This document shows, piece after piece, positions 252 to 54,032 of a stretch of 64,000 bases of DNA. Made by a program: the position numbers and the translations under genes. How positions within the stretch are numbered: position 1 is the stretch's first letter; each line of letters starts with the position of its first letter. The notes beneath the pieces were generated by a model. The model saw only the letters and a program-made list of their open reading frames with translations. It searched no databases and had not been told where the DNA came from. The stretch lies in the NCBI GenBank assembly GCA_964447405.1, contig CAYUSP010000003.1, forward strand, positions 691,723 through 755,722. The letters are read 5' to 3'. The stretch comes from an uncultured Nitrospiraceae bacterium (GTDB lineage: Bacteria > Nitrospirota > UBA9217).

Positions 252-300
252 GAAGCGTAAGGGGAAATCAGAGCACCTACAGGATTGATTACTGTTCTCC

Positions 301-332: not shown

Positions 333-336
333 TTTG

Positions 337-684: not shown

Positions 685-727
685 TCCTTGAGGGAAGGAT
701 TGAAATCCGGCCCGGAGACTCGGTTCT

Positions 728-759
728 CCCCATGCCCCATGACCCCTGCCCCATGACCC
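728..759 (-). repeat. G-run tract on the mRNA-sense strand: GGGTCATGGGGCAGGGGTCATGGGGCATGGGG (5 G-runs)
   Basis: Read directly from the sequence. It lies between the gspH stop (768) and the gspI start (684). Confidence 0.9.
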
Positions 760-767
760 TTGATCCA

Positions 768-1304: not shown

Positions 1305-1310
1305 GGCAAG

Positions 1311-1751
1311 CTACTCTATCTTCCAGCTCTGGATATCGGCATTCTTGCCCTCGCCGCCCGGCTCGTTGTCAGCGCCGTAGGAGATGATTTCATATTCTCT
1401 GCCTTCGCTTCCCGGCGATAGATACACGTAGTCCTTGTCCCACGGGTCCTTGGGAATGCGCGCCGGCTTCAGATAGCCGCCCTCGCGCCACTTCGGCGGG
1501 ACGCGGCCTGTTTCCGGCTTCCTGATCAGGGCGTCAAACCCCTGCTCCGTGGAAGGATACGATCCATTGTCGAGTTTGTAAGCATCCAACGCGCTTTCCA
1601 GCGACCGGATCTGCACTTTTGCCGTCCCGATCTTCGCCTTTTCCTCCTGCCCCAGAATGCGGGGAAGGACCAGTCCCGCAAGCAGACCGAGGATAATGAT
1701 CACCACCATGATCTCGATGAGGGTGAAACCCTTTTGATTTCTTGTCTTCAT
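1311..1751 (-). CDS. gspG: Type II secretion major pseudopilin GspG
   Basis: ORF trimmed to the ATG at 1751, preceded by AAAGGAGA. MKTRNQKGFTLIEIMVVIIILGLLAGLVLPR plus ...DPWDKDYVYLSPG...ISYGADNEPGGEG is typical of GspG. Confidence 0.9.
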   Translation of the reverse strand: MKTRNQKGFTLIEIMVVIIILGLLAGLVLPRILGQEEKAKIGTAKVQIRSLESALDAYKLDNGSYPSTEQGFDALIRKPETGRVPPKWREGGYLKPARIPKDPWDKDYVYLSPGSEGREYEIISYGADNEPGGEGKNADIQSWKIE

Positions 1752-1841
1752 ACCGAGTCTCCTTTTACCACCTGACAATATCCGGTTTTCCTTGCCCCCT
1801 GACCCTTGCTCCTTGACCCTGATTTCCAAACCCTGCCGTTA

Positions 1842-3062: not shown

Positions 3063-3086
3063 GGTTTTAATTCAGTTGGGGGTCGC

Positions 3087-3157
3087 GAGTTCGTAGTTCG
3101 GAGATAAAGACCGAAACTGCGATTCTCACTTCCATCTCCGAACTCCAAACTCCGAAC
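3087..3157. repeat. Intercistronic hairpin element: arms GAGTTCGTAGTTCGGAGAT / ATCTCCGAACTCCAAACTCCGAAC, 28-nt loop
   Basis: The inner 11 bp (AGTTCGGAGAT/ATCTCCGAACT) pair perfectly. The arms are tandem repeats of an (A)GTTCGGA-like unit. The element starts 5 nt after the gspE stop. Confidence 0.8.
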
Positions 3158-3162
3158 TTACC

Positions 3163-6710: not shown

Positions 6711-6748
6711 TCGTCGCCTCCGTGATTTGAATTGTACAGGAAAATACG

Positions 6749-6829
6749 AACCGGAGAATCGGGGAATGGGGGCCTCGGAAAGGTTCTCGGGCCAATATTC
6801 CGTAGCTCCCGTTCCCCGGTTCCCCGGTT
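6749..6829. repeat. Intercistronic hairpin element: arms AACCGGAGAATCGGGGAATGGG / CCCGTTCCCCGGTTCCCCGGTT, ~37-nt loop
   Basis: 19 of 22 positions are complementary. The arms are tandem CCGGGGAA-like units. The element starts 6 nt after the gspC stop and lies before the gspD start. Confidence 0.8.
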
Positions 6830-6835
6830 TATGTG

Positions 6836-7660
6836 TTAGCGTATCTCGTAGTTCAGCGTCTGGCGCTGACCGCCGCGGATGAGGTCAATGGAGATGTACC
6901 GCTCGTTCCTGAGTCCCTGGTAAAGCTGGAAGAACTTGGAGGGATCGTCAACATCCTGCGAATTGACCCGCTGGATCACATCATTGTTCTGGATCCCGAT
7001 CTTCTCATAGATGCTGCCCGGCACGATCTCGCTGATCTTGAACCCCACGGTCTTTCCCTGCTCCATATGGGGCAGCGCACGCGCCTGCGTCAGTATCTGG
7101 CTCATGTTTTCCGTGCTCGCGATCATTTCTTTCTGGTCCACCATCCATTTGCCATCGGAGAGCTTTTTTACACCGTTTACGCCCGGCTTTGGGATGGAGA
7201 CGATCTTGGTGTCGTCGATGATCTGGATGTCGACGGTCCCGCCATCCGCTTTCTGGAGCGTGACCTTGTCGCGGATAACCTTTATGATCTGCGAACCATC
7301 AGGCAGCTTCTGGCGCGTCCGGTAAAAAGCCTGGCCCGTGCTGTCCTCAAGCACTGCGCCGGAAAAATTCGCGCCCTCCACCGTCCCGATGAGCTTGTAG
7401 GTGGTGGCTTCGATTGCTGTCGCTCCCCCGGAAGGCCCTTTTCCATCACCGAAGATCCCGCGTTCAAGGATGGAGGAATAATCGGAGAGCTCGCGCTTCG
7501 GCTCGATCGCTGGCCGTTCACGGTCCAAGGGAGCCGCGTACTTCGGAGCAGCATCAAGGCTCCTGCCGATCATCGCATCCACCGTATCAGCAAGAAAATA
7601 AGCTGAAAACGTGAGAAGAGCAATGAGAACAAGCGTATACAGTGTTTTTTCTTCTTTCAC
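6836..7660 (-). CDS. gspC: GspC-like type II secretion protein (N-terminal TM helix, C-terminal PDZ domain)
   Basis: 274 aa with a GTG start, TM segment LYTLVLIALLTFSAYFL and a PDZ-like C-terminus (GFKISEIVPGSIYEKIGIQNNDVIQRVN). It sits immediately upstream of gspD. Confidence 0.7.
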   Translation of the reverse strand: MKEEKTLYTLVLIALLTFSAYFLADTVDAMIGRSLDAAPKYAAPLDRERPAIEPKRELSDYSSILERGIFGDGKGPSGGATAIEATTYKLIGTVEGANFSGAVLEDSTGQAFYRTRQKLPDGSQIIKVIRDKVTLQKADGGTVDIQIIDDTKIVSIPKPGVNGVKKLSDGKWMVDQKEMIASTENMSQILTQARALPHMEQGKTVGFKISEIVPGSIYEKIGIQNNDVIQRVNSQDVDDPSKFFQLYQGLRNERYISIDLIRGGQRQTLNYEIR

Positions 7661-23818: not shown

Positions 23819-24535
23819 TTACCGTGGAATAAGGATTGTCATTTTATCCAGAATCAGCAGCACGCCCATGATGATCAGGATGATGCCGCTGGTGATCTTG
23901 ACTGCCTTGAAATGTTTTTTTAACACATTGAATGACGAAAGGAAGGCGCTGATGGCGATGGCCGAAAGGATGAATGGTACGCCAAGACCGAGCGAATAAA
24001 ACATGAGCAGTGTCATCCCGCTTCCCAGCGTATCGCTCGTCACGGCAAGAGCAAGGACCGATCCCAGAAAAGGCCCGGTGCATGGCGTCCAACCTGCTCC
24101 GAAGATCATACCGACGACAACCGTACCCAAATAACCTGCGGGCCGCGATTTAAGACTGAGCTTTGCTTCCTGCTGCAAAAATGGGATGTTGACGACATCC
24201 ATCACAAATACACCCATGATAATAACCAGCACTCCTCCCACAATACGAATGACATCGAGGTGCTGCGAAAGTATGCTGCCCGCAAGGCTCGCCGTGGCGC
24301 CGAGGAGCACGAAAATGATCGAGAACCCCGCCACGAATGCCAGTGAATGGAGCAGGGTAATGCTCATGTTCTTCCGGCGCGTCTCCCTGCTGACCAACTC
24401 GTCGTAACTGATCCCGGTTATATAGGAAACGTAGGAGGGGATAAGCGGCAGAATGCAGGGAGAAGCAAAAGAAATAATCCCCATGACGAGTGAGTAAAGC
24501 AGGACATACGGCGTCAAACCATGCGAAAGGTCCAT
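23819..24535 (-). CDS. ccdA: Cytochrome c biogenesis thiol-disulfide transporter CcdA (DsbD transmembrane-domain family)
   Basis: ORF trimmed to the ATG at 24535. It has multiple TM helices, with ...FASPCILPLIPSYVSYITG... and ...AGWTPCTGPFLGSVL... as the conserved Cys motifs. Confidence 0.8.
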   Translation of the reverse strand: MDLSHGLTPYVLLYSLVMGIISFASPCILPLIPSYVSYITGISYDELVSRETRRKNMSITLLHSLAFVAGFSIIFVLLGATASLAGSILSQHLDVIRIVGGVLVIIMGVFVMDVVNIPFLQQEAKLSLKSRPAGYLGTVVVGMIFGAGWTPCTGPFLGSVLALAVTSDTLGSGMTLLMFYSLGLGVPFILSAIAISAFLSSFNVLKKHFKAVKITSGIILIIMGVLLILDKMTILIPR

Positions 24536-24729
24536 GCAGGATAATCTCCCTTTAAAAACAGCAATGCATAATACCAAAGCAGGTCAAATTTAGTCAAGCA
24601 ATACTTTTGTTATTCTCGGGTTGATGTGTTCTAAAGTTCAGACTATGCCGGGTTTTTCGCTTGATATTTCTCTGTTGCCGGCACACTCGTTCCGCACGCC
24701 ATTCCCACAGACACACGGCATTTTTTTTA

Positions 24730-29313: not shown

Positions 29314-29736
29314 GAGAACTACCAAATATAATTCGTCCAACATGAAAAAACATAACTTCAGAAATCTAAAAATCTACCAACGAGCCATAGCATTCGCTGT
29401 GGATATTTACCAGATCAGCAGGAGTTTTCCGCAGGATGAAATTTATGGGCTGACAAGTCAGATACGACGGGCCGCAACTTCAATCCCCCTTAATATTGCC
29501 GAAGGCAGTGGCAGCACATCAGGAAAAGAGTTTAGGCGATTTCTTGAAATTGCTTTACGTTCTGATTATGAGGTATTGGCCTGTCTGGAAATATCATTAC
29601 GATTGAATTACTGCAATCATGCGGTTTTTGAAAAACTGACTCAGGAAGCAAACGAAATAGCATCCATGATAGCTGGATTCTCAAAAAGCCTATAATCTTA
29701 CTTCTTACGTCTTATCTCCTTTTTCTTTCTTCTGTC
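29288..29736 (+). mobile_element. Hairpin-bounded cassette carrying a four-helix-bundle (23S rRNA IVS-type) gene
   Basis: The left arm is GGACAGAAGTAAGAAGTAAGAAGTAAGA (29288-29315). The right arm is TCTTACTTCTTAC...CTTCTGTC (29696-29736). The inner 13 bp and outer 8 bp are complementary. The cargo is AT-rich. The stop codons of both flanking convergent genes fall in the arms. Confidence 0.65.
29342..29695 (+). CDS. Four helix bundle protein (23S rRNA-intervening-sequence protein family)
   Basis: 117 aa. ...LKIYQRAIAFAVDIYQISRSFPQDEIYGLTSQIRRAATSIPLNIAEGSGSTSGKEFRRFLEIALRS..E is the canonical pattern of this family. Confidence 0.85.
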   Translation: MKKHNFRNLKIYQRAIAFAVDIYQISRSFPQDEIYGLTSQIRRAATSIPLNIAEGSGSTSGKEFRRFLEIALRSDYEVLACLEISLRLNYCNHAVFEKLTQEANEIASMIAGFSKSL

Positions 29737-31141
29737 ACTTAAAATCTTCCTTTTTCAAACCATACCGCGCCATCTTTTCATGGAAGTTCTTGATATTGAT
29801 CCCCGCATGACCAGCCGCTTTGGTCATGTTTCCGGCATACATTTTGAGAAGCTGGGTAAAATATTCTGTTTCAAACTGCGCAACGACCTCAGTTTTGATC
29901 ATCCGAAAAGGCGGGATATCGCCTCCTCCGGGGAATGACGCGGTGAACTTTCCTGTTCCTCCCGGACGTTTCAAGTCAAGACGGCTGAGGGTGTCGCCCT
30001 TTTCCATGATCACTGCGCGTTCGATAAGATTCTCCAGTTCGCGCACGTTTCCGGGATAGGAATACCGCAGCAACGCAGTGAGCGCATCCGGTGATATAGA
30101 AGTAATCGTTTTCTGGTTTTTTTCGCAATATTTCCTGAGAAAAAATGAGGCTAAAAGCGGGACATCGTCCATCCGGTCCCGCAATGCGGGCAATTTGATC
30201 GGAACAACATTCAGCCGGTAAAAAAGGTCCTCGCGAAACAACCGTTCACCCATAGCGCGATGAAGATCCTTGTGCGTGGCGGCAATGACCCGTACATCGA
30301 CTTTTACGGGATGATTACCTCCCACGCGTTCGAACTCACGCTCCTGCAGTACGCGCAGGAGCTTCATCTGGACCGGCATGGACATTTCCCCGATCTCGTC
30401 GAGGAACAGCGTACCACCATCCGCCATCTCGAATCTACCGATGCGCTGCCGGATCGCACCGGTAAACGATCCCTTCTCGTGTCCAAACAGTTCACTTTCC
30501 AGGAGGGTCTCGGGAAGGGCTGAACAGCTCACAACGACGAATGGGCGGTCCTTTCTTCTGCTGTTATAGTGGATCGACCGGGCTATGAGCTCTTTGCCTG
30601 TGCCGCTCTCTCCGTGGATCAGCACAGTTGCATCGGTCTCGGCCACTGTACGGATGAGCTGAAATATCCCCTGCATGTGCGGATTTCTTCCCAAAAGATT
30701 GCCAAACTGATAACGCTCCTCCACCTCATGCCTGAGATTTTCCACCTCCCGGAAAAGCCTCCTGCGTTCAACAGCATTTTTTACCTGTTGGCTCAGATCC
30801 TCATATTGTATCGGTTTGGTTAAAAAGCTGTAGGCGCCCTCCTTCATTGCCTTGACAGCCATCTCTATCGTCCCGTAAGCGGTCACGACGATCACCGGAA
30901 TGTCAGTCCTGCCCGGCCCCGGGAAGGCTCCCTTGCGAAGCTTCTCGAGCAGGTCCATACCCGTGATCATCGGCATCTGCTGGTCCACGATAATGACATC
31001 GAAATCGCGGCTCTCAAGGCATCTCAATGCCGAAACGCCGTCTTCCGCCGTCTCTACTTCATAGCCTTCCCTTCTGAGGTTGGCAGACATGACCAGAAGG
31101 ATGTCGGGCTCATCGTCGACTATTAAGAGGGAGCCTTTCAT
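29735..31141 (-). CDS. Sigma-54-dependent response regulator (REC, AAA+ and Fis-type HTH domains; NtrC family)
   Basis: 468 aa. The REC domain has LLIVDDEPD...DVIIVDQQMP. It also has Walker A GESGTGKE, the sigma-54 contact ESELFGHEKGSFTGA, and a C-terminal HTH. Confidence 0.9.
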   Translation of the reverse strand: MKGSLLIVDDEPDILLVMSANLRREGYEVETAEDGVSALRCLESRDFDVIIVDQQMPMITGMDLLEKLRKGAFPGPGRTDIPVIVVTAYGTIEMAVKAMKEGAYSFLTKPIQYEDLSQQVKNAVERRRLFREVENLRHEVEERYQFGNLLGRNPHMQGIFQLIRTVAETDATVLIHGESGTGKELIARSIHYNSRRKDRPFVVVSCSALPETLLESELFGHEKGSFTGAIRQRIGRFEMADGGTLFLDEIGEMSMPVQMKLLRVLQEREFERVGGNHPVKVDVRVIAATHKDLHRAMGERLFREDLFYRLNVVPIKLPALRDRMDDVPLLASFFLRKYCEKNQKTITSISPDALTALLRYSYPGNVRELENLIERAVIMEKGDTLSRLDLKRPGGTGKFTASFPGGGDIPPFRMIKTEVVAQFETEYFTQLLKMYAGNMTKAAGHAGINIKNFHEKMARYGLKKEDFK

Positions 31142-32850
31142 AGGGGGGGGGTCTGATTGAGGACCGTGGAATATGGCTTGTCCGAATGTACTGCTTCTCC
31201 ATGTGCTCCGGGTGCACTGCTCTGCATGCCGGAACAGCAGCGTATAGGAAGCCTCACCAGGATCCGGGTGCCGCCGGACGAGGGTTGATCGATGACGATC
31301 TCACCCTCATGGCTCTTCAAGACCCTCTGGACGATGGTCAGGCCAAGCCCCGTACCTCTGACTTTGGTCGTATAAAAGGACTGGAAGACGCGCTCCCGAT
31401 CCTGCTCGGGAATTCCCGGGCCCGAATCCTGGATGCGAATTTCGACTGCCGGCCGATCCATTGCCTGCGCCGTGGAAACCCGCAGCGTCCCACCCCCGGG
31501 CATTGCTTCCGCGGCATTGCGCAGCAGATTGTGCAGCGCCTGTTCTATCTGCAGCTCATCCGCCTGCAAATGCGGAAGCCCCGGATCAAGGTCGCGCACC
31601 AGCTCGATCTTCTGGGTGCGGAGCTGCTCACCAAGAGCATCAAGCGCCTGATCAAGCACGGTATTGACCTGAAGCGTCGTGAGATTCATGCGGATCGGTT
31701 TGGAAACATAGAGGAGGTCGGAGGCCACCTGGTTAACGCGGACAGCCTGCCGTTTGATCAAGCTCGTGAACTTTTGCAGTGTTTCATCGTTTGCATATTC
31801 CGTGGACAGAAAATGCGCCGCTCCAGTGATCGCGTTCAACGGATTTCTCACTTCGTGGGCCACACGGGCGGCCATCTCTCCCAGCTCTGCGAGGCGGCGC
31901 GACTGTTCGAGCCGCTCTGCGAGCCGGACCTTTTCGGTCACGTCCTTGATGTATTCGACCACCTGAACGACCCGGTTGCCCCGGTCCAGCAGAGGAAACG
32001 AGCTGATCTCGACGACCCGGTCCTCGGCCACGCCGGCGTTTCGGGGGAGTCTCTTCGTGGTCGATGCCGGCAATCCCGTGCGAAACGTCTCCTCGGCAGG
32101 GCAGTCATTGCAGACCGTGGTCCCGAAGGAGCAGGCTTCATGGCACCGCTCGCCGGGTGTGATGCTCCGGGCGAGCAGCGACGTCATTGACTTATTCGCG
32201 GCGGTTATCCTGAAATCACTGTTAATGACCTGGATGCCGTCCGTGATGCCGTCGAACATGGCCACCAGTCTCTTGCGAGCATCGGAGATCTGGTCCTCCA
32301 TCTCCTTTTTTCGCGTAATATCCTCAAGCATGATCACCACGCCGTTTCCGACGGACCAGGCCATTTTGCCGAGGGGATAAACGCTGTAGCTCATGGTCTT
32401 TCGGGGGCCGTGCTTCGACAGCAGATCATATTCGAGGTCAATGGCGGCACCTGCGGCCCAGACCGCATCGGACAAACGCTCCCATAGTGCTCGGAGCGCA
32501 TGGTCATCGAATCCCATGATCTTGCCTATTTCCGCCATATGCTTGCCAACCACCATCACGCGCGGCAAGCCGAATAATTTTTCCGCCGCGGCATTAAAGA
32601 TCCTGATGCCGCCTTCTCCGTCAAGCGAGATGATGCCGGTGGTCACACTGTCGAGCAGGCCTCCCATGTGCAGAAGGAGTTCGTTGTTCCAGCCGGGTGC
32701 AGCCGGGATCGCGGCTCCGGAACGCGCGGGTTGACCGGCCCCACCTCCGAAAGGATCGTTGCCAAGAGGTGTCTTTTTTTCGGTTCGCATGAATGGAAAT
32801 CGCGATTTACTGGTGGGAAGTTTCCTTGTCATGTTTATCCGTCTTGTCAC
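31138..32850 (-). CDS. PAS-domain sensor histidine kinase (cytoplasmic; one PAS carries a 4-Cys motif)
   Basis: It has two PAS-like regions, HisKA (AHEVRNPLNAI) and HATPase_c (DSGPGIP...GTGLGL). The GTG start at 32850 overlaps the upstream gene by 44 nt, so ATG 32832 or 32790 may be the true start. Confidence 0.85.
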   Translation of the reverse strand: MTRRINMTRKLPTSKSRFPFMRTEKKTPLGNDPFGGGAGQPARSGAAIPAAPGWNNELLLHMGGLLDSVTTGIISLDGEGGIRIFNAAAEKLFGLPRVMVVGKHMAEIGKIMGFDDHALRALWERLSDAVWAAGAAIDLEYDLLSKHGPRKTMSYSVYPLGKMAWSVGNGVVIMLEDITRKKEMEDQISDARKRLVAMFDGITDGIQVINSDFRITAANKSMTSLLARSITPGERCHEACSFGTTVCNDCPAEETFRTGLPASTTKRLPRNAGVAEDRVVEISSFPLLDRGNRVVQVVEYIKDVTEKVRLAERLEQSRRLAELGEMAARVAHEVRNPLNAITGAAHFLSTEYANDETLQKFTSLIKRQAVRVNQVASDLLYVSKPIRMNLTTLQVNTVLDQALDALGEQLRTQKIELVRDLDPGLPHLQADELQIEQALHNLLRNAAEAMPGGGTLRVSTAQAMDRPAVEIRIQDSGPGIPEQDRERVFQSFYTTKVRGTGLGLTIVQRVLKSHEGEIVIDQPSSGGTRILVRLPIRCCSGMQSSAPGAHGEAVHSDKPYSTVLNQTPPL

Positions 32851-34357
32851 TGCCCGTCGAGTACTGATGGTAGGAATGCATGCCCAGCTTCAGCAGCCCC
32901 TTCTCGATCAGTTTCCTCGCGGAGTCGGCAACAACAGGATCGAACTGGCCGCCCGACTCCCGCTTGAGTTCAACGAACACTTCCTGGCTCGAAATAGTGC
33001 CGCGATAAGGCCGTTCGGAGATCATGGCATCGATCGTATCGGCAACATTGAGGATCCTCGCAGCGAGGGCGATCGCCTCCCCGGCAAGGCCGCGCGGGTA
33101 CCCCTTCCCGTCATACCGCTCATGATGCTGATAGATCGCATTGATGATAAACGCTGAGAAGCCTATCGGCTCAAGGATCCTGATCCCGTGTGCCGGGTGA
33201 TCCTTCATGATGTCGAATTCTTCCCTGCTGAGCCGTTCCGGTTTGCTGATGATCAATTCGCTGATCCCGATCTTGCCCACATCATGCAGGATGGCGGCGA
33301 TATGGACCTCTTCCAGCTGCGAGGGGCTCATGCCGATGTCCCGCGCGATGGCCACTGCGTATTTCGCAACATTAGTGGAGTGCCACCGCGTGTAGGGATC
33401 CTTCGCTTCCACAGCAGCCACAAGCGCCTGCACGGTGCGGAAATAATTCTCCCGCAGGTTCTCATAAAGAGCGGCGTTTTCCATGGCGGTCACCACCTGG
33501 CTGGACAGGATGAGGACGATCTGGAGGTCGCTCTCCGTGAACGATGGCCCGGAGAGCTTGCTGACGTTCAGTACGCCGAACAGTTTGTTCTTTCCCATGA
33601 GCGGGACCGACATGGAGGAGGCCGGCATGTTCTCCCGGTTAAGGGCGCTCATGACGTCCGCGTCAGGATGCTTGCCGGCCGAGATGATCAGCGGCTTCCG
33701 GTGCTTGAGTACCAGGCCGGACACTCCCTCTCCTTCATGGCGCCTGGCCTTGAGCGCGAGGTCCGTGGAAAGACCGTGGGATGCCCGGATCAGCAGCGTG
33801 CCGCTCGCCTCATCGATCAGCATGAGCGAAACACGGTCCACATGGAATTCCTGCACCAGCACCTCGGTGATGATCTTGAAGAGATGGGCGAGATCGATCT
33901 CGGTGACCAGAAGCTTGCTGATCTCGAACAGGGGAATGAGCGCCTTCAGCCTGATGTTCTCCTTTTGAAGCCGGCTGCGCTTGACTGCGCGGTCGACCGC
34001 TCCCAGCAATTCTTCCTGGGTGAATGGCTTGAGCACGAAACCATCCACGCCGCGCATCAGGGACTCGATCGCCGTGTCAAGGGTGCCATGGCCGGTGATG
34101 AAGATGGTCACGATGTCCAGCTTCATGACCTTGACCCGCTCGAACAGCTCGAGTCCGTCAATGCCCGGCATTCTGATGTCGGTAATCAGCAGGTCCGTAG
34201 CCGCATTCGCAAGCTCATCCAGCGCCGCAGCACCGTTCGATACCGTGGAAACCTGGTACCCCTCGGCCTCAAGGATCAGTTTACAAAGATCTCTGATTGC
34301 ATCTTCATCGTCAACGACAAGGATTTTCTCTCCTGCCATGCAATAACTCCTGTCCAA
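32807..34357 (-). CDS. Response regulator with REC, GAF and HD-GYP domains (putative c-di-GMP phosphodiesterase)
   Basis: 516 aa. It has a REC domain (ILVVDDEDA...LLITDIRMPGIDG), a central GAF-like region, and HDVGK...HHERYDGKGYPRGL (HD-GYP). Confidence 0.85.
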   Translation of the reverse strand: MDRSYCMAGEKILVVDDEDAIRDLCKLILEAEGYQVSTVSNGAAALDELANAATDLLITDIRMPGIDGLELFERVKVMKLDIVTIFITGHGTLDTAIESLMRGVDGFVLKPFTQEELLGAVDRAVKRSRLQKENIRLKALIPLFEISKLLVTEIDLAHLFKIITEVLVQEFHVDRVSLMLIDEASGTLLIRASHGLSTDLALKARRHEGEGVSGLVLKHRKPLIISAGKHPDADVMSALNRENMPASSMSVPLMGKNKLFGVLNVSKLSGPSFTESDLQIVLILSSQVVTAMENAALYENLRENYFRTVQALVAAVEAKDPYTRWHSTNVAKYAVAIARDIGMSPSQLEEVHIAAILHDVGKIGISELIISKPERLSREEFDIMKDHPAHGIRILEPIGFSAFIINAIYQHHERYDGKGYPRGLAGEAIALAARILNVADTIDAMISERPYRGTISSQEVFVELKRESGGQFDPVVADSARKLIEKGLLKLGMHSYHQYSTGSDKTDKHDKETSHQ

Positions 34358-34502: not shown

Positions 34503-35942
34503 CTACACCGGCAGAATCACCCGAAAAGTGGAACCCTCGCCAACCTTGCTTTCAACTTCAAGCCTGCCGCCGTGATTCTGAACGATCATATAGCTGATGG
34601 AGAGCCCGAGACCGGTCCCGTCTCCATCGGCACGCGTCATGAAAAAAGGATCGAAAATCCTGTCAAGCTGCTCTTCGGGGATGCCGGTGCCTGTATCGAT
34701 GAACTCCACGGTGATATGCTCCTTCCCGGTAAAGTCCGCTGACAGCCGGCTCGTAATCAGCAGGGACCCTCCCTGCGGCATGGCGACAAATGCGTTGCTG
34801 ATGAGATTCACAAATACCTGTTTCATTTCGTCGCTGTCCATCGCCACAAGCGGCAGCCCGGCGGGACAGCTGGTGGTGATCTCTACGTTGCTGATCCGAG
34901 CCTGACCCTTGATCAGCGAAATGGTGTCCTGCACGACGCCGCAGAGGTCGGTTTTGACAAGCTGCGGAGGTTTCCGCCGGGAGAAGTCAAGCAGGCTCTT
35001 CAGAATCTCCCGGGCGCGCAGTGTTTCACGTTCTATGGTCTTTAAGTACGCTTTTTTATCTTCGGGTATGTCGTCCGCCTTCAGCAGCAGCCCGGTATAG
35101 CCCAGCACGCCGGTCAGGGGATTGTTGACTTCATAGGCGATATTAGTAGCCATCTCGCCAATCGCAGCCAGTTTTGCGCTTTGCACCAGCTGCCGCTGTG
35201 AGCGGTGAAGGTTTTGGGTCATCGCATTGAAGGCTTCGCCAAGTTCCTTGAATTCGCTTCCCTGGTCATCGCTGATCTCCACGCGCTGCTGCAAGTCGCC
35301 CCGTGCTATGAGTCGGATCGCAACGAGCAGTTTGCTGAGGCGACGTTCCAGACTATCCGCAAGGTACCATGCAATGATCACCGCAAGAAAGAATCCGAGC
35401 AAGAGGGTGAAATACAGGACGGTCCTGATCTCACGGATGGTGGTAAGGGTATCCTGGGTCTTTTGCTGCAGCCGCACATTTGCGGTAAAGGCCATACCCT
35501 GCGTCATGGTAATGAGTTCCTGCCCCAGTTCATGGGCACGTCGCTCGAACGAGGCGATTCGGGCGGGATTCGCGGACGCCGTTACCAGCCGGCTGATGGC
35601 TGCCTTGTAATCGCCGGCCATATCATGCATGCCCAGCAGACCCTGGGCAAGCTCTGGAGCATGATGACAGCCGAGACAGGAGTCCATAACGTTGTCAAGT
35701 TCCTGGACCTGTGCGATCAGCACGTCCACATCGCCGCCCCTCCGGGTCCTGTTCATATAGATATGGGATTGTACCTGCTGCAGATGGATGATAAGGCTTT
35801 CCCGCAGAATCTCGACCTGATGCAGCTGGATCAGTTTGTCCATGCGCTGCGTCGTCTTGGTGATATAGATCGCGGCGATCACGCTCCCGGTCAGGAAGAT
35901 CGCGATCAGCATGCCAAAGCCAATAAGGATTCTTTTTTTCAT
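34503..35942 (-). CDS. Membrane sensor histidine kinase with a periplasmic CXXCH (c-heme-binding) motif, HAMP, HisKA and HATPase domains
   Basis: 479 aa. TM1 spans residues 5-27 and TM2 ~175-195. CLGCH is at residues 89-93 (nt 35664-35678), between the two TMs. HAMP follows, then YEVNNPLTGV and the ATPase motifs. Confidence 0.85.
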   Translation of the reverse strand: MKKRILIGFGMLIAIFLTGSVIAAIYITKTTQRMDKLIQLHQVEILRESLIIHLQQVQSHIYMNRTRRGGDVDVLIAQVQELDNVMDSCLGCHHAPELAQGLLGMHDMAGDYKAAISRLVTASANPARIASFERRAHELGQELITMTQGMAFTANVRLQQKTQDTLTTIREIRTVLYFTLLLGFFLAVIIAWYLADSLERRLSKLLVAIRLIARGDLQQRVEISDDQGSEFKELGEAFNAMTQNLHRSQRQLVQSAKLAAIGEMATNIAYEVNNPLTGVLGYTGLLLKADDIPEDKKAYLKTIERETLRAREILKSLLDFSRRKPPQLVKTDLCGVVQDTISLIKGQARISNVEITTSCPAGLPLVAMDSDEMKQVFVNLISNAFVAMPQGGSLLITSRLSADFTGKEHITVEFIDTGTGIPEEQLDRIFDPFFMTRADGDGTGLGLSISYMIVQNHGGRLEVESKVGEGSTFRVILPV

Positions 35943-35955
35943 GGTATCATGCCGC

Positions 35956-36879
35956 TCATTCGTTCCGATAGTGATATGTTTTCAGATTGATGCCGACTTG
36001 CGATGTGATCTTGTAGAGATATTCAAAGTCCTTGTCGCTCGTCTCGATGAATCCGCGGGCACCGAATCGGCGAAGCGCGTCCCGCCCTTCTTCGTTCTTC
36101 TCCATCTCGACAAGCACCTTGACGAGCGCCTTTTTAATATCAGGATCGAGGTCACTGCGGACCGCCAAACAGTTCTGGGGTACAACGCCCGAGGCCCCAA
36201 TGATCATGAGCTCCTTCTCGATCCGGGGATTCTCCGACATCAACTGGTCGTAGATGGTATTCTTCGCGGCTCCTATGTCCGCTTCCTTGTTCAGCACCGC
36301 CAAAATCGCGGCATCATGGCTGCCGGCGAAAAAGGTCTCCCCCAGATAGGAATGAGGGTCAACAATGCCTTTCTCCCGGAAATACGCGAGCGGAAAGATA
36401 TATCCGGCGGTTGTGGCTCGCTCCACGAAAACAAAACGCTTCCCCTTCATGGAGGACTCACTGCGAATACCGCTGTCCTTGCGGACAAAGATGTACCCGT
36501 GATAAGTGGAAGTCCCGTCCATATTGACCGGCCGCGCGAGCGGTTCCACACCCAGCTGGCTGTGAGCCAGGCCATAGGTGAAACTGCCAAAAAACGCGCC
36601 GTCCATTTTTTCCGCAACAAACCGCTCAATAATGTTTCCGTAGCGGCTCAGACTGGTGAAGTTGACCGTCATGCCTATCCGGTCGGACAGATATTTTCGC
36701 AGGACCATGTAGCGTTCCCGCTGCCGAAATACATTCTGCTCGGGAATCAGCCCGATGAGAAGCTCCTGCTGCCCCAGCGTTTTCTTCTGTTCCGGGGGCG
36801 CTTTTTTATTCTCGCATGCCCCGAACGCGAGGGACACCGCTACCAGGAGGATTGTTGTCATGCGTTTATACGGTGCCAT
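35956..36879 (-). CDS. PhnD-like periplasmic substrate-binding protein (phosphonate/phosphate ABC-type SBP fold), no transporter genes adjacent
   Basis: ORF 35956..37197 trimmed to the ATG at 36879, preceded by GGGGAGA. It has a lipoprotein-like signal (ILLVAVSLAFGAC) and ...LLIGLIPEQN...GAFFGSFTYGLAH..., which is PhnD-like. Confidence 0.65.
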   Translation of the reverse strand: MAPYKRMTTILLVAVSLAFGACENKKAPPEQKKTLGQQELLIGLIPEQNVFRQRERYMVLRKYLSDRIGMTVNFTSLSRYGNIIERFVAEKMDGAFFGSFTYGLAHSQLGVEPLARPVNMDGTSTYHGYIFVRKDSGIRSESSMKGKRFVFVERATTAGYIFPLAYFREKGIVDPHSYLGETFFAGSHDAAILAVLNKEADIGAAKNTIYDQLMSENPRIEKELMIIGASGVVPQNCLAVRSDLDPDIKKALVKVLVEMEKNEEGRDALRRFGARGFIETSDKDFEYLYKITSQVGINLKTYHYRNE

Positions 36880-36898: not shown

Positions 36899-38995
36899 TT
36901 ATACCGCCGCCAGCTTATACAGAGGAAGGACCACCCGGAACGTGGTTCCCTGCCCCTGCTCGCTCTGAACCTCGATGCTGCCGCCATGATTTTGCACGAT
37001 GCGATAGCTGATAGAGAGCCCCAGCCCTGTACCGTCTCCTTTCTCCTTGGTGGAGAAGAACGGCTCAAATATTTTATTCTTGTGCTCTGCCGCAATTCCC
37101 ACACCGGAGTCCCGGATAACAACGAAACATTCCTGCTCGGACGCGATATCGACGTTGATCGCGATAACTCCTCCGTGCGGCATGGCCTGGAGCGCATTGT
37201 TCAGGATATTAATGAACACCTGCTTCATTTCATTATGATCCATGTTGACGATCACCGGCGATTCAGGATAGTCCTCCTGAATCCTGACGGACGCCTGCTC
37301 GGCAATACCCTGCAGCAGCGCCACGGTCTCCCGGAGCGGCTGGGTCAGATCCCCCGGCTGCATCCATGACGGCCGCTGACGCGCGAAGTCGAGCAGATTG
37401 CGGATGATCTTGCGCACCCTGAGCGTCTCCTGCTCCATCAGCCCGAGAATCCGCTTCGGCTCATCCGGCAGGTCAAGTGTCTTGATCAAGTGGGTCGTAT
37501 ACCCAAGCACGCTCGTCAGCGGATTGTTGATCTCGTGAGCAACATTCGCCGAGAGCTCGCCGATGGCCACCATCCTCGTGGAATGGAGGAGCTGTTCCTG
37601 AGTGGCATGGAGCTCGCTCATTTTCCCCTTCAGGTCGGAATAGAGAGAGGCATTCTGCAGAGCTGCGGCAGCAAGGCTCGAAAACACGGTGAATAGCCTG
37701 AGATCATGTTTGTCGAAGTTCGTTCCGCCCTTTTTGTTGACTGCGGTGATCAACCCCGTCATAGTATTCGCTGACCACAGCGGGATGGTCATGATGCTCC
37801 TGAAGCCGAGCGATTTCATGGAGGTACTGTCGAGTCTGAAGTCAGCCAGGGCATCGGGAATCAGGAGCGGCGTGCCATAGCTTACCAGCCAGTTGTATAT
37901 GCCCCCCGCCTCGACCGGCATCTCCAGCCCCCGGATAACATGCGATCGGGAGCCGTATACTCCCAGATATTTGAGCATGCGGTCGGACCGGTCAACCACG
38001 GAAATGGCGATCGTATCGGCCCTTACGAGGTCCTCCGCTCTTGCAGCGATCTTGACCAGCAGCGCCTCCTGGTCAAGGCTTTCCATAAGGTCAAGGCCGG
38101 CGGTATGCAGCAGAAAGAGGTCCCGGTTCCCGCGAGATAGACTGGTATCGCGGGTCCGGAGCGTCAGCGCCATCTGGTTGAACGTGTGGCCGAGTTTGCT
38201 GATCTCATCAGATCCCTTGACAGGGAAAGGAGTATCCCAATCCTGCTGGCTCAACCGGTCGGCTGCCTTGCTGAGCTGAAGGATGGGCCGCGTAATGCTG
38301 ATCGCGATGATCTGGCTGAATGCCAAGCCGACCAGCAGGATCCCGATCAGCGCAACCGCGGATTTTGTTATAAATCCCGAGAATTTCTGCTCAAACCGTT
38401 GACTGGAGATGCCCGCCCGGACATACCCCACTCGGTCGGCTCCCGACATGACCGGAAGCGTAAGATCATACACGCCGTCTGCCTTGATGCGGAACACGGG
38501 TTCCGTGATGCCGCCGTCGGAATCGCAGTGAAGCGTGGTATCCTCGCGGTCCTGCAGGTTGCTGCCGGGCCTTGTATAAAAGGAGGCGCCGCTACTTAAA
38601 TATACCTCCGCGGCCGTACTGGCGATGAGCATTTTACATGCATGATTGTACACCATCAGATACCGCAGGGAATTGCCGGAATGGGACTCATCATCGGCCG
38701 CAAAAGGGGGGGCTATCTTCCGATAAATCTCGAGCAGGTTCCCTGTGGTAATATCATCAGCGGTAAGCGCCGCTATTTCTCGGGCCACATACAAAGCCCT
38801 GTCCCTGATCTCGGCATCCAGGGTCCTTTTCGCCTCCCGAAAATAGAACGCACCCACCAGCGAGGCAACCAGGATAAGAGCTACTGTCATAAAAAAAGAC
38901 ACTCTGCATCCGATGCTGCCCCACCACCAGAAGAGAGCCCTGCGCAATCTATCCGATATAACTGAGTTTTCCCCGATTGAATGCGTCTTGGCCAT
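36899..38995 (-). CDS. Membrane sensor histidine kinase (periplasmic domain, HAMP, GAF, HisKA and HATPase)
   Basis: 698 aa. It has two TM helices flanking a ~150-aa periplasmic region, HAMP (ITRPILQLSKAADRL...), a GAF-like region, AHEINNPLTSV and the ATPase motifs. Confidence 0.85.
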   Translation of the reverse strand: MAKTHSIGENSVISDRLRRALFWWWGSIGCRVSFFMTVALILVASLVGAFYFREAKRTLDAEIRDRALYVAREIAALTADDITTGNLLEIYRKIAPPFAADDESHSGNSLRYLMVYNHACKMLIASTAAEVYLSSGASFYTRPGSNLQDREDTTLHCDSDGGITEPVFRIKADGVYDLTLPVMSGADRVGYVRAGISSQRFEQKFSGFITKSAVALIGILLVGLAFSQIIAISITRPILQLSKAADRLSQQDWDTPFPVKGSDEISKLGHTFNQMALTLRTRDTSLSRGNRDLFLLHTAGLDLMESLDQEALLVKIAARAEDLVRADTIAISVVDRSDRMLKYLGVYGSRSHVIRGLEMPVEAGGIYNWLVSYGTPLLIPDALADFRLDSTSMKSLGFRSIMTIPLWSANTMTGLITAVNKKGGTNFDKHDLRLFTVFSSLAAAALQNASLYSDLKGKMSELHATQEQLLHSTRMVAIGELSANVAHEINNPLTSVLGYTTHLIKTLDLPDEPKRILGLMEQETLRVRKIIRNLLDFARQRPSWMQPGDLTQPLRETVALLQGIAEQASVRIQEDYPESPVIVNMDHNEMKQVFINILNNALQAMPHGGVIAINVDIASEQECFVVIRDSGVGIAAEHKNKIFEPFFSTKEKGDGTGLGLSISYRIVQNHGGSIEVQSEQGQGTTFRVVLPLYKLAAV

Positions 38996-43124: not shown

Positions 43125-45518
<2,394 letters not shown>

Positions 45519-45601
45519 TAGAGTCAGAGCGAAGGCCTGTCACGGATTACCTGCGGTGTGATCAAGTAATACCGGCATAAGTTGTTTTCGATGCATGATC
45601 A

Positions 45602-45638
45602 GGTCCTATCATCGAGCGGATGATGGGACCTTTTTATT
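45602..45638 (+). terminator. Rho-independent terminator after katG
   Basis: The stem GGTCCTATCATC/GATGATGGGACC (one G-U pair) has a 5-nt loop and is followed by TTTTTATT. Confidence 0.8.
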
Positions 45639-45652
45639 CTGGAGATCTAACC

Positions 45653-46702
45653 ATGAGCATGATCATCGAACTTGCAGAGAACGGCCGCCTGCCGGATGCG
45701 CTAATCCGCGCCGGTATCCGGACGCTCAATCGGCAGCGACTTCGTGAAGAGCAGCGCGGCGGCATCGAGGCGCTCCGCGAGCACCAGCGCCAGTTCATCG
45801 CAATGCTGCGCTAGAGCCCCATCGCAGTCCTGACCGAGGCTGCGAACGAACAGCACTACGAGGTCCCGCCGGAGTTCTTCCTCCTCGCACTGGGGAAGAA
45901 CCGCAAGTACAGCTGCTGCTATTATCCGACTGGGATGGAGAGCCTGAACGAGGCAGAGGAGAGGATGCTCGCGCTCACCTGCGAGCGAGCGCAGCTCTCC
46001 GATGGCATGGACATCCTGGAGCTCGGCTGCGGATGGGGTTCCCTCACGCTCTGGATGGCGGAGCAGTATCCAAAGAGTCGGATCACGGCCGTGTCGAACT
46101 CCAATCCCCAACGGGAGTTCATCACAGCACTCTGCCGTGACAGGGGCATCGGGAACGTCCTGGTGGTCACGGCGGACATGAACAATTTCTGCACTGAGAA
46201 TCGCTTCGACAACGTCGTGTCGGTCGAGATGTTCGAGCACATGCGGAACTATGAACTGCTGCTCCGAAAGGTCGCTTCCTGGATGCGGCCCGGCGCAAAG
46301 CTCTTCGTCCACATCTTCTGCCACAAGGAATATGCCTACCTGTTCGAGGACGAGGGCGAGGACAACTGGATGGGGAGGCATTTTTTCAGTGGCGGCATCA
46401 TGCCATCCGACGACCTGCTGCTCTATTTCCAGGATGATGTCGCCATTGAGAACCACTGGCGCGTGGACGGGACCCACTATGAGAGGACCGCGAACCACTG
46501 GCTGCAGAACATGGACGCGCGGAAGGAAGCAGTCATGCCGGTCCTGGAGCGGACCTACGGGATGCAGGACGCCGCCCTATGGTTCCAGCGATGGAGGCTC
46601 TTCTTCATGGCCTGCGCCGAGCTGTGGGGGTTCCGCGATGGCCAGGAATGGTGGGTGGCGCACTATTTATTCAGAAAACGATCGGTCAGACAACCATCCT
46701 AA
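45653..46702 (+). pseudogene. Cyclopropane-fatty-acyl-phospholipid synthase-like SAM methyltransferase interrupted by a single in-frame TAG (codon 54)
   Basis: ORFs 45620..45814 and 45935..46702 are in the same frame. Reading through the TAG at 45812-45814 gives ...[28 protein letters not shown]...[10 protein letters not shown]..., a continuous CFA-synthase-family sequence. The ATG at 45653 has a GGAGAT RBS. Confidence 0.65.
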
Positions 46703-46782
46703 CAAAGGAGTCTTCCAGGTCCAGAAGGCTTCGGTGATCGATGGTTTCGTCCGCCAAGAGCGGAGGGACCAAGGCGAAGGGG

Positions 46783-47631
46783 CTATTGCAAAGTCCGCAG
46801 ATAGGAGATCACCGCCGCCAGATCAGCGGGTGTCAGCTTGCTGGTGGCATTTGTGACGACCTCTTCCATGGCCTTGTTGGCCACGTCGCCGTCCGGCAGT
46901 ATTCCGGTCTTCAAATACTTCGCCAGATCCTGATCGCTCCATTTTTTCAGCCGTGATGACGTCAGGTCAGGAACCTTCTTGCCGTCCGGGCCAATACCGC
47001 CTTTGAGATAGCTCTTCTTCTTGGGAGCACCAGCCAGGTTGCGAGGCGTATGACATTCGCCGCAATGCCCCACCGCCTGGACCAGATAGGCCCCGCGGTC
47101 GACAGATCCCGAACGCACGTGATCCGGAACGAACGGCCCGGGCGTGAAGAACAGCCACTGCCAGCCCCGGAGAGGGAAACGCATCCCGAAGAGCGGCCCG
47201 AGGTCATGCGGCCGGCTTGCGAGCTTGTCCGGTTTGAGTGAGCGCAGATAGGACCACAGGTCCTTCAGGTCGCTGTCACTGATCCCCGTGAATGAAGGAT
47301 ACGGGAATGCCGGGAAGTAGATCGCTCCATCGGGACGGACGCCATGGCGCATGGAACGGATGAAGTCGGATTCGCTCCAGCGACCGATTCCCCTATCGTT
47401 GTCCGGAGTGATATTCGGTCCGAAGAACGTGCCAAAGGGGGTCTTGAGCGCGCGTCCGCCTGCATAGGGTATAGCGCCTTCCCGGTCCTCGGTGTGGCAT
47501 CCCGCGCAATTGGCAATGCTTGCCAGATAGGCGCCCCGCTTCACATCCTCAACCGTTCCCGCCAGGCCATTCGATCCGGTCAGCAGCAGAACGAACAATC
47601 CGATAGCGACTGTCTGTTTCCTGTTTCCCAT
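46783..47631 (-). CDS. Dihaem c-type cytochrome (secreted)
   Basis: ORF trimmed to the ATG at 47631. It has a signal peptide and two CXXCH motifs (CAGCH, CGECH) in class-I cytochrome c-like contexts. Confidence 0.8.
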   Translation of the reverse strand: MGNRKQTVAIGLFVLLLTGSNGLAGTVEDVKRGAYLASIANCAGCHTEDREGAIPYAGGRALKTPFGTFFGPNITPDNDRGIGRWSESDFIRSMRHGVRPDGAIYFPAFPYPSFTGISDSDLKDLWSYLRSLKPDKLASRPHDLGPLFGMRFPLRGWQWLFFTPGPFVPDHVRSGSVDRGAYLVQAVGHCGECHTPRNLAGAPKKKSYLKGGIGPDGKKVPDLTSSRLKKWSDQDLAKYLKTGILPDGDVANKAMEEVVTNATSKLTPADLAAVISYLRTLQ

Positions 47632-47647
47632 ATCCACTCCATCCTGT

Positions 47648-47680
47648 GACAAAGAAGACCCCGCCCATCAGGGCGGGGCC
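47648..47680 (-). terminator. Rho-independent terminator after the cytochrome c' gene
   Basis: The minus strand reads GGCCCCGCCC-TGAT-GGGCGGGGTC followed by TTCTTTGT. Confidence 0.7.
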
Positions 47681-47700
47681 GTACCAAGCCATCAATGTCC

Positions 47701-48162
47701 CTACTGTTTCTTTTCACGGAAATTGTCGTGGCACCCGCCGCAGGTCTTGCCGAGTGCGCCGATAGCACCCTTTGTGGCGGCCTCGTCCTTACCTTTGGAT
47801 GCGGCGACCAGCTTGGCCACGGCTGCCTGCGTCTCATCCGTTGCCGCCTTAAACTTCGCCGTGTCGGAAAAGACCGCGGGGAGCGAGGCGGATTTTTCCT
47901 TTGCCGTGGCGGCATCAAAGCCGTCCCAGGGCATCTTGGCAAGCACTTCCAGGTACCCGGCATTGCGCGCGACGGTCTCCGCGTTGAAGGGGGCTTCGCC
48001 TTTCGCCATTGCGACAAGCGGGCCAAAATACTTCCCCTGCAGCGTCATGGCTGCCTGACGCTGCTTGACAAGCACCTCGGGTTTCATCTGTGAGAACGCC
48101 GTGACCGCAAGACCAGCAAACACCGCCATTGTTACGACCGAAACGAGCACCATCTTCTTCAT
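47701..48162 (-). CDS. Cytochrome c' / class II cytochrome c (four-helix bundle, C-terminal haem site)
   Basis: 153 aa. It has a signal peptide, helical composition, and a single CGGCH 10 residues from the C-terminus. Confidence 0.8.
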   Translation of the reverse strand: MKKMVLVSVVTMAVFAGLAVTAFSQMKPEVLVKQRQAAMTLQGKYFGPLVAMAKGEAPFNAETVARNAGYLEVLAKMPWDGFDAATAKEKSASLPAVFSDTAKFKAATDETQAAVAKLVAASKGKDEAATKGAIGALGKTCGGCHDNFREKKQ

Positions 48163-50894: not shown

Positions 50895-51293
50895 TTACTT
50901 CTCTCTCCGGTAACAGTATCTTGCAGCCGCAAGCGCCAGGATGATGGCCGCAATGCCCACCAGCGTCATGCCCGCGAGCTCCTTCACATCCAGGGTAATG
51001 ACCTTGCGCGCGATGGCGATCATGGCCACGGTCAGGACCACCTCGAAGTGCACTACATTATCCTTGAGATAGGCCTTGATCGTCTCGAGCAGCTCCACGC
51101 CGATCAACACCAGCAAAAACAGCCCGAAGATGTCCAGCAGCTCATCGATCTCGAGCAGGAGGACCGGCGGAGTGATGATGTCCTTGATGATGATCCATCC
51201 CAGCTCGATGGTCGCCAGCAGAACGACGACGGCCATCAATATGACCAGCGTGGCCGTTACCGCCTTTTCGAACTTCTTCAGCAGATCAAGCAT
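50895..51293 (-). CDS. PsiE-like (phosphate-starvation-inducible E family) membrane protein
   Basis: ORF trimmed to the ATG at 51293, preceded by AGGAGG. It has four TM helices with ...LLVLIGVELLETIK.Y.......VVLTVAMIAIARKVI... Confidence 0.55.
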   Translation of the reverse strand: MLDLLKKFEKAVTATLVILMAVVVLLATIELGWIIIKDIITPPVLLLEIDELLDIFGLFLLVLIGVELLETIKAYLKDNVVHFEVVLTVAMIAIARKVITLDVKELAGMTLVGIAAIILALAAARYCYRREK

Positions 51294-53979: not shown

Positions 53980-54032
53980 GGCGTCTCCCGTGGTGCAGCT
54001 GCGGAGCAAAGCACATACGTTAGCAAGTAGCG

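Follow-up and report, generated by a model that had tools for sequence, protein, structure and literature searches.

A putative periplasmic haem-c sensor domain on a four-helix bundle, accompanied by a binding protein and, in a Nitrospirota clade, by a transmitter with a tyrosine H-box

We analysed a 64,000-nucleotide stretch of an uncultured Nitrospiraceae genome (Nitrospirota, UBA9217; assembly GCA_964447405.1, contig CAYUSP010000003.1, positions 691,723 to 755,722), hereafter the window. On its minus strand, at 34503-35942, it encodes a kinase-family protein of 479 residues. We propose that residues 28-171 of this protein, the haem-sensor protein, form a periplasmic haem-c sensor built on a four-helix bundle, coupled to a binding protein and wired in this organism to a pseudokinase, a reading to which we assign a probability of roughly 0.65. 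What we computed comprises the attachment motif, the membrane topology, the invariance of the motif across a protein family, the prediction of a helical fold, the pairing with a binding-protein gene and a tyrosine substitution in the transmitter. The sensor family has probably not been described before and, if the structure models are right, would place a periplasmic haem-c sensor on a new scaffold.

A CxxCHH motif in a predicted periplasmic domain

The reverse complement of window positions 35664-35678, TGTCTCGGCTGTCAT, reads TGT CTC GGC TGT CAT and encodes C89-L-G-C-H93; the next codon (35661-35663, minus strand) adds a second histidine, H94, directly after H93. The features of the protein are as follows.

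35661-35678, minus strand: codons of C89-L-G-C92-H93-H94, the proposed haem-c attachment site (two thioether cysteines, proximal histidine and invariant second histidine)
35430-35861, minus strand: periplasmic sensor domain, residues 28-171, a predicted up-down four-helix bundle
35862-35930, minus strand: first transmembrane helix (TM1), residues ~5-27, after the MKKR N terminus, from hydropathy
35355-35429, minus strand: second transmembrane helix (TM2), residues ~172-196, continuous with helix α4, from hydropathy and the structure model
35205-35345, minus strand: HAMP domain, residues 200-246 (PF00672, E 1.1e-7)
34971-35159, minus strand: HisKA/DHp domain, residues 262-324 (PF00512, E 3.9e-14)
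34509-34838, minus strand: HATPase_c catalytic domain, residues 369-478 (PF02518, E 7.9e-26)

Transmembrane segments were called by Kyte-Doolittle hydropathy. Because the N terminus is MKKR (positive-inside rule) and a cytoplasmic HAMP domain follows straight after TM2, residues 28-171 are assigned to the periplasm, and the segment bearing the CXXCH is predicted to be exported and to face that compartment. An earlier note on this DNA had reported the CXXCH at 35664-35678 and had set it in the periplasm between TM1 and TM2; the reverse-complement translation bears out the first statement, and the hydropathy, the MKKR sequence and the position of HAMP all agree with the second.

From the amino acid frequencies of the window (C 1.08%, H 2.2%), a domain of 145 residues is expected to contain 0.0004 CXXCH and 8e-6 CXXCHH by chance. 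The open reading frames (ORFs) of the window, about 19,800 residues in all, hold five CXXCH: three in bona fide cytochromes, one in the haem-sensor protein and one in a P-type cation ATPase (51286-54009, minus strand). The single CXXCH of the ATPase is probably fortuitous, and a bare motif alone is weak evidence.

Conservation and the wider family

Word-indexed homology searches returned mostly close or truncated relatives, and it took an exhaustive search with a profile of just the sensor region (E up to 1e-3, clusters at 50% identity) to reveal the family. This profile matched 256 clusters. CxxCHH occurs within the first 200 residues of all 142 representatives of at least 150 residues (142/142), and in 119 of them it begins exactly at residue 89. 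When 127, 34 or 74 divergent members are aligned, at a median identity to the query of about 32%, the only invariant columns are C89, C92, H93 and H94, and these four residues remain the sole invariants even over the full length of the full-length family proteins.

Uncultivated Nitrospirota genomes are the source of the close relatives (62-80% identity). Among the matches listed in a profile scan of genome contigs, we compared 25 orthologous loci, all of them Nitrospirota orthologues. CXXCH is kept in 25/25 of these and in 13/13 more distant loci, and CxxCHH in 24 of the 25; the exception, L024 (7929-8519), reads C-T-G-C-H-E-Q-H, with a two-residue insertion between the proximal and the second histidine. 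Since all four invariant codons vary synonymously among loci (TGC/TGT, CAT/CAC), selection acts on the protein; judged by these alignments, CxxCHH defines a protein family and is maintained by purifying selection. The earlier note had raised the conservation of CXXCH among orthologues, and the motif is strictly kept both there and in this much wider family. One metagenomic orthologue, P0012, has tryptophan in place of C89 (SWVGCHH); the change is a single-base difference from cysteine in a sequence with other oddities and may reflect a sequencing error or a decaying copy.

The sensor domain is a modular input. HAMP follows TM2 directly in 73 of 74 full-length members, whose outputs include a kinase core in 58 cases, a hybrid kinase with receivers in 22, GGDEF, sometimes joined by EAL, in 11 and a LytS-type kinase in one, with frequent PAS linkers; the signalling domain of methyl-accepting chemotaxis proteins (MCPs) was not seen among the 74. 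The taxonomy of the wider family rests on three named proteins from metagenome-assembled genomes (MAGs), namely Desulfobacterales SG8_35_2, a Desulfobulbaceae MAG and a Nitrospirota MAG, and named members are currently annotated as 'hypothetical' or 'HAMP domain-containing'. Five short proteins (P0180-P0184) that we considered as stand-alone domains stop within the HAMP region and are probably fragments. The contig of locus L002 (JBLMWN010000055.1), labelled as a Betaproteobacteria MAG, is probably mis-binned, because its gene order is that of the Nitrospirota loci and its proteins are 70-84% identical to those of the window's gene string.

Predicted fold of the sensor domain

The AlphaFold2 model of the sensor domain is a four-helix bundle with a pLDDT (predicted local distance difference test) of 88.3 and helices at residues 24-63 (α1), 72-90 (α2), 96-121 (α3) and 126-191 (α4). 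Both AlphaFold2 models have four helices and no strands, and their structural neighbours are all helical bundles, the best solved match being the sensor of the kinase Adeh_2942 (TM-score 0.84, normalised by target length). The domain is thus modelled as an up-down-up-down bundle between two transmembrane helices and, on these models, is a classic Tar-type four-helix bundle rather than PAS or Cache. The earlier note had described the domain as all-helical and not PAS-like, a description with which the AlphaFold2 bundle and the Adeh_2942 match agree.

Sequence profiles were silent on the fold. No Pfam or NCBIfam model covers the sensor region, 34 sensor domains searched at E up to 1 gave scattered noise only, and a profile search of PDB sequences with the sensor domain returned no significant match. 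PF02203, PF12729 and PF05227 likewise gave no match, save one sub-threshold CHASE3 match (E 0.0037) in one family member. An hhalign comparison with a 4HB_MCP_1 domain gave a probability of 0.1%, although the template was a single sequence and sensitivity therefore low, and homology to the sensor of the neighbouring kinase was not detected.

In the model, CxxCHH occupies the last turn of α2 and the α2-α3 loop, on the membrane-proximal side. Because α2 and α3, with 19 and 26 residues, do not reach the length of the periplasmic stretches of α1 and α4 (~36 and ~46 residues), the haem would lie beneath the α2/α3 hairpin, against the stalk helices. We infer that this level corresponds approximately to a conserved face of α1, L40-H41-x-x-E44-x-x-R47, and to M150 of α4, which supplies two candidate distal ligands.

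35820-35822, minus strand: H41 on α1, candidate distal haem ligand, histidine in 118/127 members (93%)
35493-35495, minus strand: M150 on α4, alternative candidate distal ligand, methionine in 101/127 members (80%)

On the same face of α1, E44 is conserved in 114/127 (90%) and R47 in 123/127 (97%), and R47 is a plausible partner for a haem propionate. In the CxxCHH of tetrahaem cytochrome c3, the second histidine ligates a neighbouring haem. By analogy, H94 might ligate the haem of the dimer partner, but the geometry of a Tar-like dimer makes this doubtful.

Another group of conserved residues is found in the membrane-distal half of the domain, well above the predicted level of the haem (residues 55-66, 112-125 and 136-140; window ~35523-35780). 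It contains Q58 (92%), Y112 (91%), S117 (87%), T121 (88%), A136 (84%) and G140 (88%), and could be a docking surface for a binding protein or a ligand pocket.

Context for the proposed haem attachment

Cytochrome c maturation systems recognise little beyond an exported CXXCH. Three proteins encoded elsewhere in the window are relevant to such maturation.

23819-24577, minus strand: CcdA-like thiol-reductant transporter (DsbD_TM; PF02683, E 1.7e-17)
46783-47652, minus strand: dihaem cytochrome c
47701-48162, minus strand: cytochrome c', of the class II cytochromes c (PF01322)

The organism makes periplasmic c-type cytochromes, because both a dihaem cytochrome c and a cytochrome c' are encoded here. 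The earlier note's mention of CcdA and c-type cytochromes corresponds to these same three proteins. With the motif exported as predicted, we consider a covalent haem on the sensor domain to be highly probable. The two cytochrome genes lie in a region (43164-48162) of haem proteins of the oxidative or nitrosative stress type, together with a catalase-peroxidase-like protein (PF00141) at 43164-45518.

A periplasmic binding protein accompanies the sensor

Directly upstream of the sensor gene, on the same strand, lies a gene which the earlier note overlooked, whereas the remainder of its computable interpretation holds apart from the kinase assignment discussed below.

35956-36879, minus strand: periplasmic binding protein of the PhnD/PtxB/AioX/ArrX family (PF12974, E 1.1e-61) with a lipoprotein-type signal, LAFGAC

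Its stop codon is 14 nucleotides before the ATG of the sensor gene, and no ATP-binding cassette (ABC) transporter gene adjoins it. Its nearest solved relatives are PtxB (5o2j, E 1.5e-31), PhnD and HtxB; ArrX and AioX were also matched.

The pairing extends well beyond the window. Of 23 orthologous loci, 13 have a PF12974 gene next to the sensor gene, upstream on the same strand; such a gene also stands directly upstream in nine of ten divergent lineages (L029, L030, L031, L032/33, L034, L035, L036, L037 and L038), where the encoded binding proteins share 34-51% identity with that of the window. In L032, L036, L037 and L038 the start and stop codons of the two genes overlap. The pairing persists across outputs (kinase, PAS-kinase, hybrid kinase and PAS-GGDEF-EAL); it goes with the sensor domain whatever the output, which makes the bundle itself the most likely site of action of the binding protein. 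Such docking has precedents among four-helix-bundle sensors in Tar-MBP (maltose-binding protein), LytS-XylFII, TorS-TorT and GlnX-GlnH (PMC8050422), and a signalling role of PF12974 proteins is known from AioXSR and, in the form of fused domains, from TtrS and ThsS (PMC8050422, PMC5408782).

In other loci the GAF kinase gene described below is followed directly by the sensor gene (L005, L006, L007, L008, L010, L011, L012, L013, L016, L017 and L021). About ten close orthologous loci lack the binding-protein gene, which has been lost or moved in roughly half of the close clade, and the protein is therefore either dispensable or encoded elsewhere.

A transmitter with tyrosine at the phospho-acceptor site

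The earlier note had called the protein a histidine kinase. HisKA and HATPase_c domains are indeed present, but the phospho-acceptor of the H-box is Tyr270 and not histidine: the H-box reads NIA-Y270-EVNNPL, with TAT at 35133-35135 (minus strand) in place of the histidine codon. Position 270 is tyrosine in 22 of 23 readable orthologous loci (histidine in L005), while the H-box histidine is present in 42 of 43 wider-family representatives and in both other kinases of the gene string. By eye, the N, G1, F and G2 boxes are intact (NLISNA, DTGTGI, FDPFF and GTGLGLS).

The other genes of the string are the following.

36899-38995, minus strand: upstream paralogous canonical kinase (transmembrane helix, periplasmic domain, transmembrane helix, HAMP, GAF, HisKA with H-box AHEINNPL, HATPase)
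32807-34357, minus strand: response regulator with GAF and HD-GYP domains (cyclic di-GMP phosphodiesterase type), directly downstream of the sensor gene
31138-32850, minus strand: PAS-PAS histidine kinase, H-box AHEVRNPL
29735-31141, minus strand: NtrC-type sigma-54-dependent response regulator, whose gene ends the string and comes after those of the HD-GYP regulator and the PAS kinase

The syntenic order is Cache-like/GAF kinase, binding protein (in some loci), haem-sensor protein, receiver-GAF-HD-GYP regulator, PAS kinase and sigma-54 regulator. The canonical paralogous kinase always adjoins the haem-sensor gene in orthologous loci, and the HD-GYP regulator is syntenic in every orthologous locus that has downstream sequence. 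The gene directly after the sensor gene encodes an NtrC-type regulator in L029, L030, L034 and L036. Near the family members at L034 and L036 there are also small multihaem cytochrome genes (L034:2312-3061 and L036:6746-7306; faint Cytochrome_C7 / c3_2 matches), which are possible regulatory targets; both of these members have sigma-54 regulators. Scans of the window for sigma-54 promoters (TGGCAC-N5-TTGCW, up to two mismatches) were uninformative, with 30 matches against 32.6 expected, and scans for sigma-70 promoters and terminators stayed at background level.

In their kinase cores, the upstream GAF kinase and the haem-sensor protein share about 50% identity, whereas the cores of other family members are at about 32%, and this greater closeness suggests a local duplication of the transmitter; the periplasmic domain of the upstream kinase has a weak sCache_3_2 match only. 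By analogy with the Caulobacter protein DivL, the haem-sensor protein probably does not autophosphorylate. In the most speculative part of our proposal, it would act via the paralogous kinase (by heterodimerisation, trans-phosphorylation or allostery) or bind a phosphorylated regulator.

Proposed mechanism and alternatives

Haem attachment, axial ligands, signal, docking of the binding protein and output route are the parts of the proposal that we infer. C89 and C92 would form the thioether bonds of one covalent c-type haem, with H93 as proximal iron ligand. The attachment site would be at the membrane-proximal tip of the short α2/α3 hairpin, so that the haem packs on the long stalk helices running into TM1 and TM2. 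A change in haem redox state, or a small molecule displacing a labile distal ligand, would then shift α4/TM2 relative to α1/TM1, a movement that HAMP would relay to the cytoplasmic transmitter. The PhnD/PtxB/AioX-type protein would probably dock on the bundle, much as LytS is bound by XylFII and Tar by MBP, and the module could thereby combine 'oxyanion present' with 'redox or ligand state of haem'. The Tyr270 transmitter, probably a DivL-like pseudokinase, would control or trans-phosphorylate the upstream paralogous canonical kinase, or bind the adjacent response regulators.

Several observations weigh against this proposal. No candidate distal ligand is universal or obligatory, and three family members lack both H41 and M150. 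The AlphaFold model has no cofactor, so the pocket and the ligand assignments depend on helix-length arithmetic, and the haem proposed for the family members is read from their sequences. The invariant H94 is not explained by the haem model, and L024 tolerates the two-residue insertion before it. In the 64-kb window a haem lyase gene (CcsBA or Ccm) was not found, CcdA being the only maturation component. About 10 of the 23 close orthologous loci, as well as the LytS-type lineage (L026-28), have no PF12974 gene, and the pseudokinase assignment depends on one residue and the analogy with DivL.

Among other explanations of the motif, a functionless chance occurrence has a vanishingly small probability: the motif is short, and the ATPase carries a probably fortuitous copy, but with 0.0004 expected per domain, its retention in 142/142 representatives at ~32% identity, through synonymous codon turnover, has already refuted the idea. 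A real function need not be haem attachment. CxxCHH could be a periplasmic metal site (Cys2His2-type zinc, copper or iron) or a CXXC thiol-disulfide switch, through which the bundle would sense a metal or oxidant directly. Helical periplasmic kinase domains that sense metals exist, the motif places four invariant potential metal ligands within six residues, and neither candidate distal haem ligand is universal. We nonetheless consider this improbable, since the strict C-x-x-C-H spacing, with histidine right after the second cysteine in 142/142, is the canonical haem-c signature, and the segment is exported by the Sec route in organisms that produce c-type cytochromes, whose maturation asks for little more. 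R47 (97%), by our estimate at the level of the motif, is moreover typical of propionate binding, and adjacent histidines rarely chelate one metal along with a CXXC.

The haem could instead be a structural or electron-transfer cofactor, the true input being the docking of the ligand-loaded PF12974 protein, as in AioX-AioS or XylFII-LytS. The binding-protein gene directly upstream in the window and in 9/10 divergent lineages, often with overlapping start and stop codons, speaks for this, as do the inclusion of the signalling proteins AioX and ArrX in the PF12974 family, the documented activation of four-helix-bundle sensors by binding proteins (PMC8050422) and the membrane-distal cluster (Q58, Y112, S117, T121 and G140), a possible docking or ligand site. 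We judge it unlikely, however, because ~10/23 close orthologous loci and the LytS-type lineage have no adjacent binding-protein gene yet retain CxxCHH, because the haem motif is the sole invariant feature of the family, and because the haem-c sensor domains studied so far all use their haem for sensing (PMC8396549, PMC12889525). On the output side, the protein might be a working autokinase despite Tyr270, phosphorylating another residue or the tyrosine and signalling conventionally to the adjacent response regulator. In favour of this, nothing is missing from its N, G1, F and G2 boxes or from the acidic position that follows residue 270; histidine is found in L005 as in the rest of the family, and a response-regulator gene follows directly. 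There is, on the other hand, no other histidine near position 270 in DHp helix 1, tyrosine is fixed in 22/23 orthologues, the same substitution abolishes kinase activity in DivL (PMC4211667) and a canonical paralogous kinase is always encoded alongside; a working autokinase is therefore quite improbable. The reading that we retain is that of a haem-c sensor coupled to a binding protein and a pseudokinase.

Comparison with known sensors

Periplasmic haem-c sensors with PAS-like or Cache domains include GSU0582 and GSU0935 of G. sulfurreducens, DcrA of D. vulgaris and the sCache_heme/Tll0287-like family PF11845 (PMC8396549, PMC12889525). Like these, the haem-sensor protein has an extracytoplasmic domain between two transmembrane helices with one CXXCH, feeding HAMP and then kinase or cyclic di-GMP modules, to which the known sensors add chemotaxis modules; also shared are the occurrence in anaerobes rich in c-type cytochromes and the presumed sensing of redox state or small ligands (nitric oxide, NO; O2) through the haem (PMC8396549, PMC12889525). 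The known domains have an alpha/beta fold with a central antiparallel sheet, whereas that of the window is predicted to be all-helical, and no match to PF11845, PAS or Cache was found in the sensor region at E up to 1 for the window domain and 34 family members. The family further differs in its extra invariant histidine, its dedicated binding-protein partner and the absence of MCP output among the 74 members noted above. The suggestion in the earlier note that this may be a different haem-sensor fold is in keeping with the searchable literature, in which the described haem-c sensors are all PAS-like or Cache (PMC8396549, PMC12889525). In that literature, which is incomplete, we found no report of a helical haem-c sensor, a CxxCHH signature or a pairing of PF12974 with a haem kinase. 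At L033:4091-5350, a Tll0287-like (sCache_heme)-GGDEF gene, encoding this other kind of periplasmic haem-c sensor, adjoins a family member in convergent orientation.

The predicted fold is that of the four-helix-bundle periplasmic sensors Tar/Tsr (TarH), 4HB_MCP_1, PcaY_PP, NarX, Adeh_2942, HK9 and LytS-N. These known sensors are cofactor-free and bind small ligands or binding proteins, unlike the window domain, where a CXXCH at the hairpin tip would imply covalent haem. We know of no Tar-type bundle member that carries a cofactor. Adeh_2942's sensor domain, the closest structural match, is a haem-free bundle (Pokkuluri et al. 2013).

The class II cytochromes c (cytochrome c', c556; PF01322) also combine a four-helix bundle with one covalent haem at the end of the bundle and a CXXCH in the last turn of a helix. 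In cytochrome c', which is soluble, the motif is at the C terminus of helix 4, whereas in the membrane-anchored window domain it ends helix 2. Cytochrome c' binds NO and carbon monoxide. Homology of the sensor domain to the window's own cytochrome c' was considered and rejected: hhalign aligned only the 10-residue motif (probability 11%), and the sensor domain has no PF01322 match.

The arrangement of genes resembles AioXSR and ArrXSR in having a PF12974 gene beside the sensor gene with no adjacent ABC transporter and, at the four loci named above, an NtrC-type regulator. Differences are that the sensor domain of AioS is sCache-like and haem-free (PMC8050422) and that the best solved match of the window's binding protein is the phosphite-binding PtxB. 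AioXSR, ArrXSR, TtrS and ThsS sense respiratory or redox-active oxyanions, for example arsenite, arsenate, tetrathionate and thiosulfate (PMC8050422, PMC5408782).

DivL has been described as unique in having tyrosine at the phospho-acceptor site and acting as a pseudokinase (PMC4211667). The haem-sensor protein shares with it this tyrosine in an otherwise complete H/N/G1/F/G2 transmitter, conservation within a clade and a setting among canonical kinases and response regulators (PMC4211667). DivL, however, is a cytoplasm-facing, multi-PAS protein of the Alphaproteobacteria that binds DivK~P and controls CckA, whereas the Nitrospirota protein has no PAS domain and is organised as transmembrane helix, four-helix bundle, transmembrane helix, HAMP, DHp and catalytic (CA) domain. 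Because the rest of the haem-sensor family has histidine, the tyrosine substitution is, judged from the alignment, independent of that in DivL.

Other features of the window

At the start of the window (1-7660, minus strand), ORFs with prepilin-type N termini (GFTLLEV, GFTLVEL and GFTLIEI) are followed by large secretion-type genes. Judged from the N termini of the ORFs, the arrangement resembles a gene cluster for type II secretion or type IV pili.

Implications

Periplasmic haem-c sensors are thought to let many anaerobes read redox state and gases outside the cytoplasm. If our reading is correct, a second, unrelated scaffold would mean that haem c has been recruited into sensors repeatedly, the scaffold in question being the other principal fold of extracellular sensors. 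A 2026 preprint presented haem c in Cache domains as a new principle (PMC12889525). A compact helical domain of ~145 residues could link the chemistry of the cofactor directly to the thoroughly studied piston and HAMP mechanism of signal transduction.

The near-constant pairing with PF12974 offers a testable route to the physiological signal and suggests a way to combine chemical and redox inputs. More tentatively, and with considerable doubt, the window protein may be the founding example of a new sensor class, in which a Tar-like bundle with haem c and a dedicated binding protein respond as a coincidence detector to a redox-active oxyanion on the one hand and the redox or ligand state of the periplasm on the other, and which one Nitrospirota clade has rewired, by duplication of the transmitter and a change of histidine to tyrosine, into a DivL-like pseudokinase. 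The conserved tyrosine would then represent a second, independent origin of the 'tyrosine H-box' and a non-alphaproteobacterial case for studying the change from kinase to pseudokinase. A model of the domain would, in addition, improve the annotation of many Nitrospirota and Desulfobacterota genomes.

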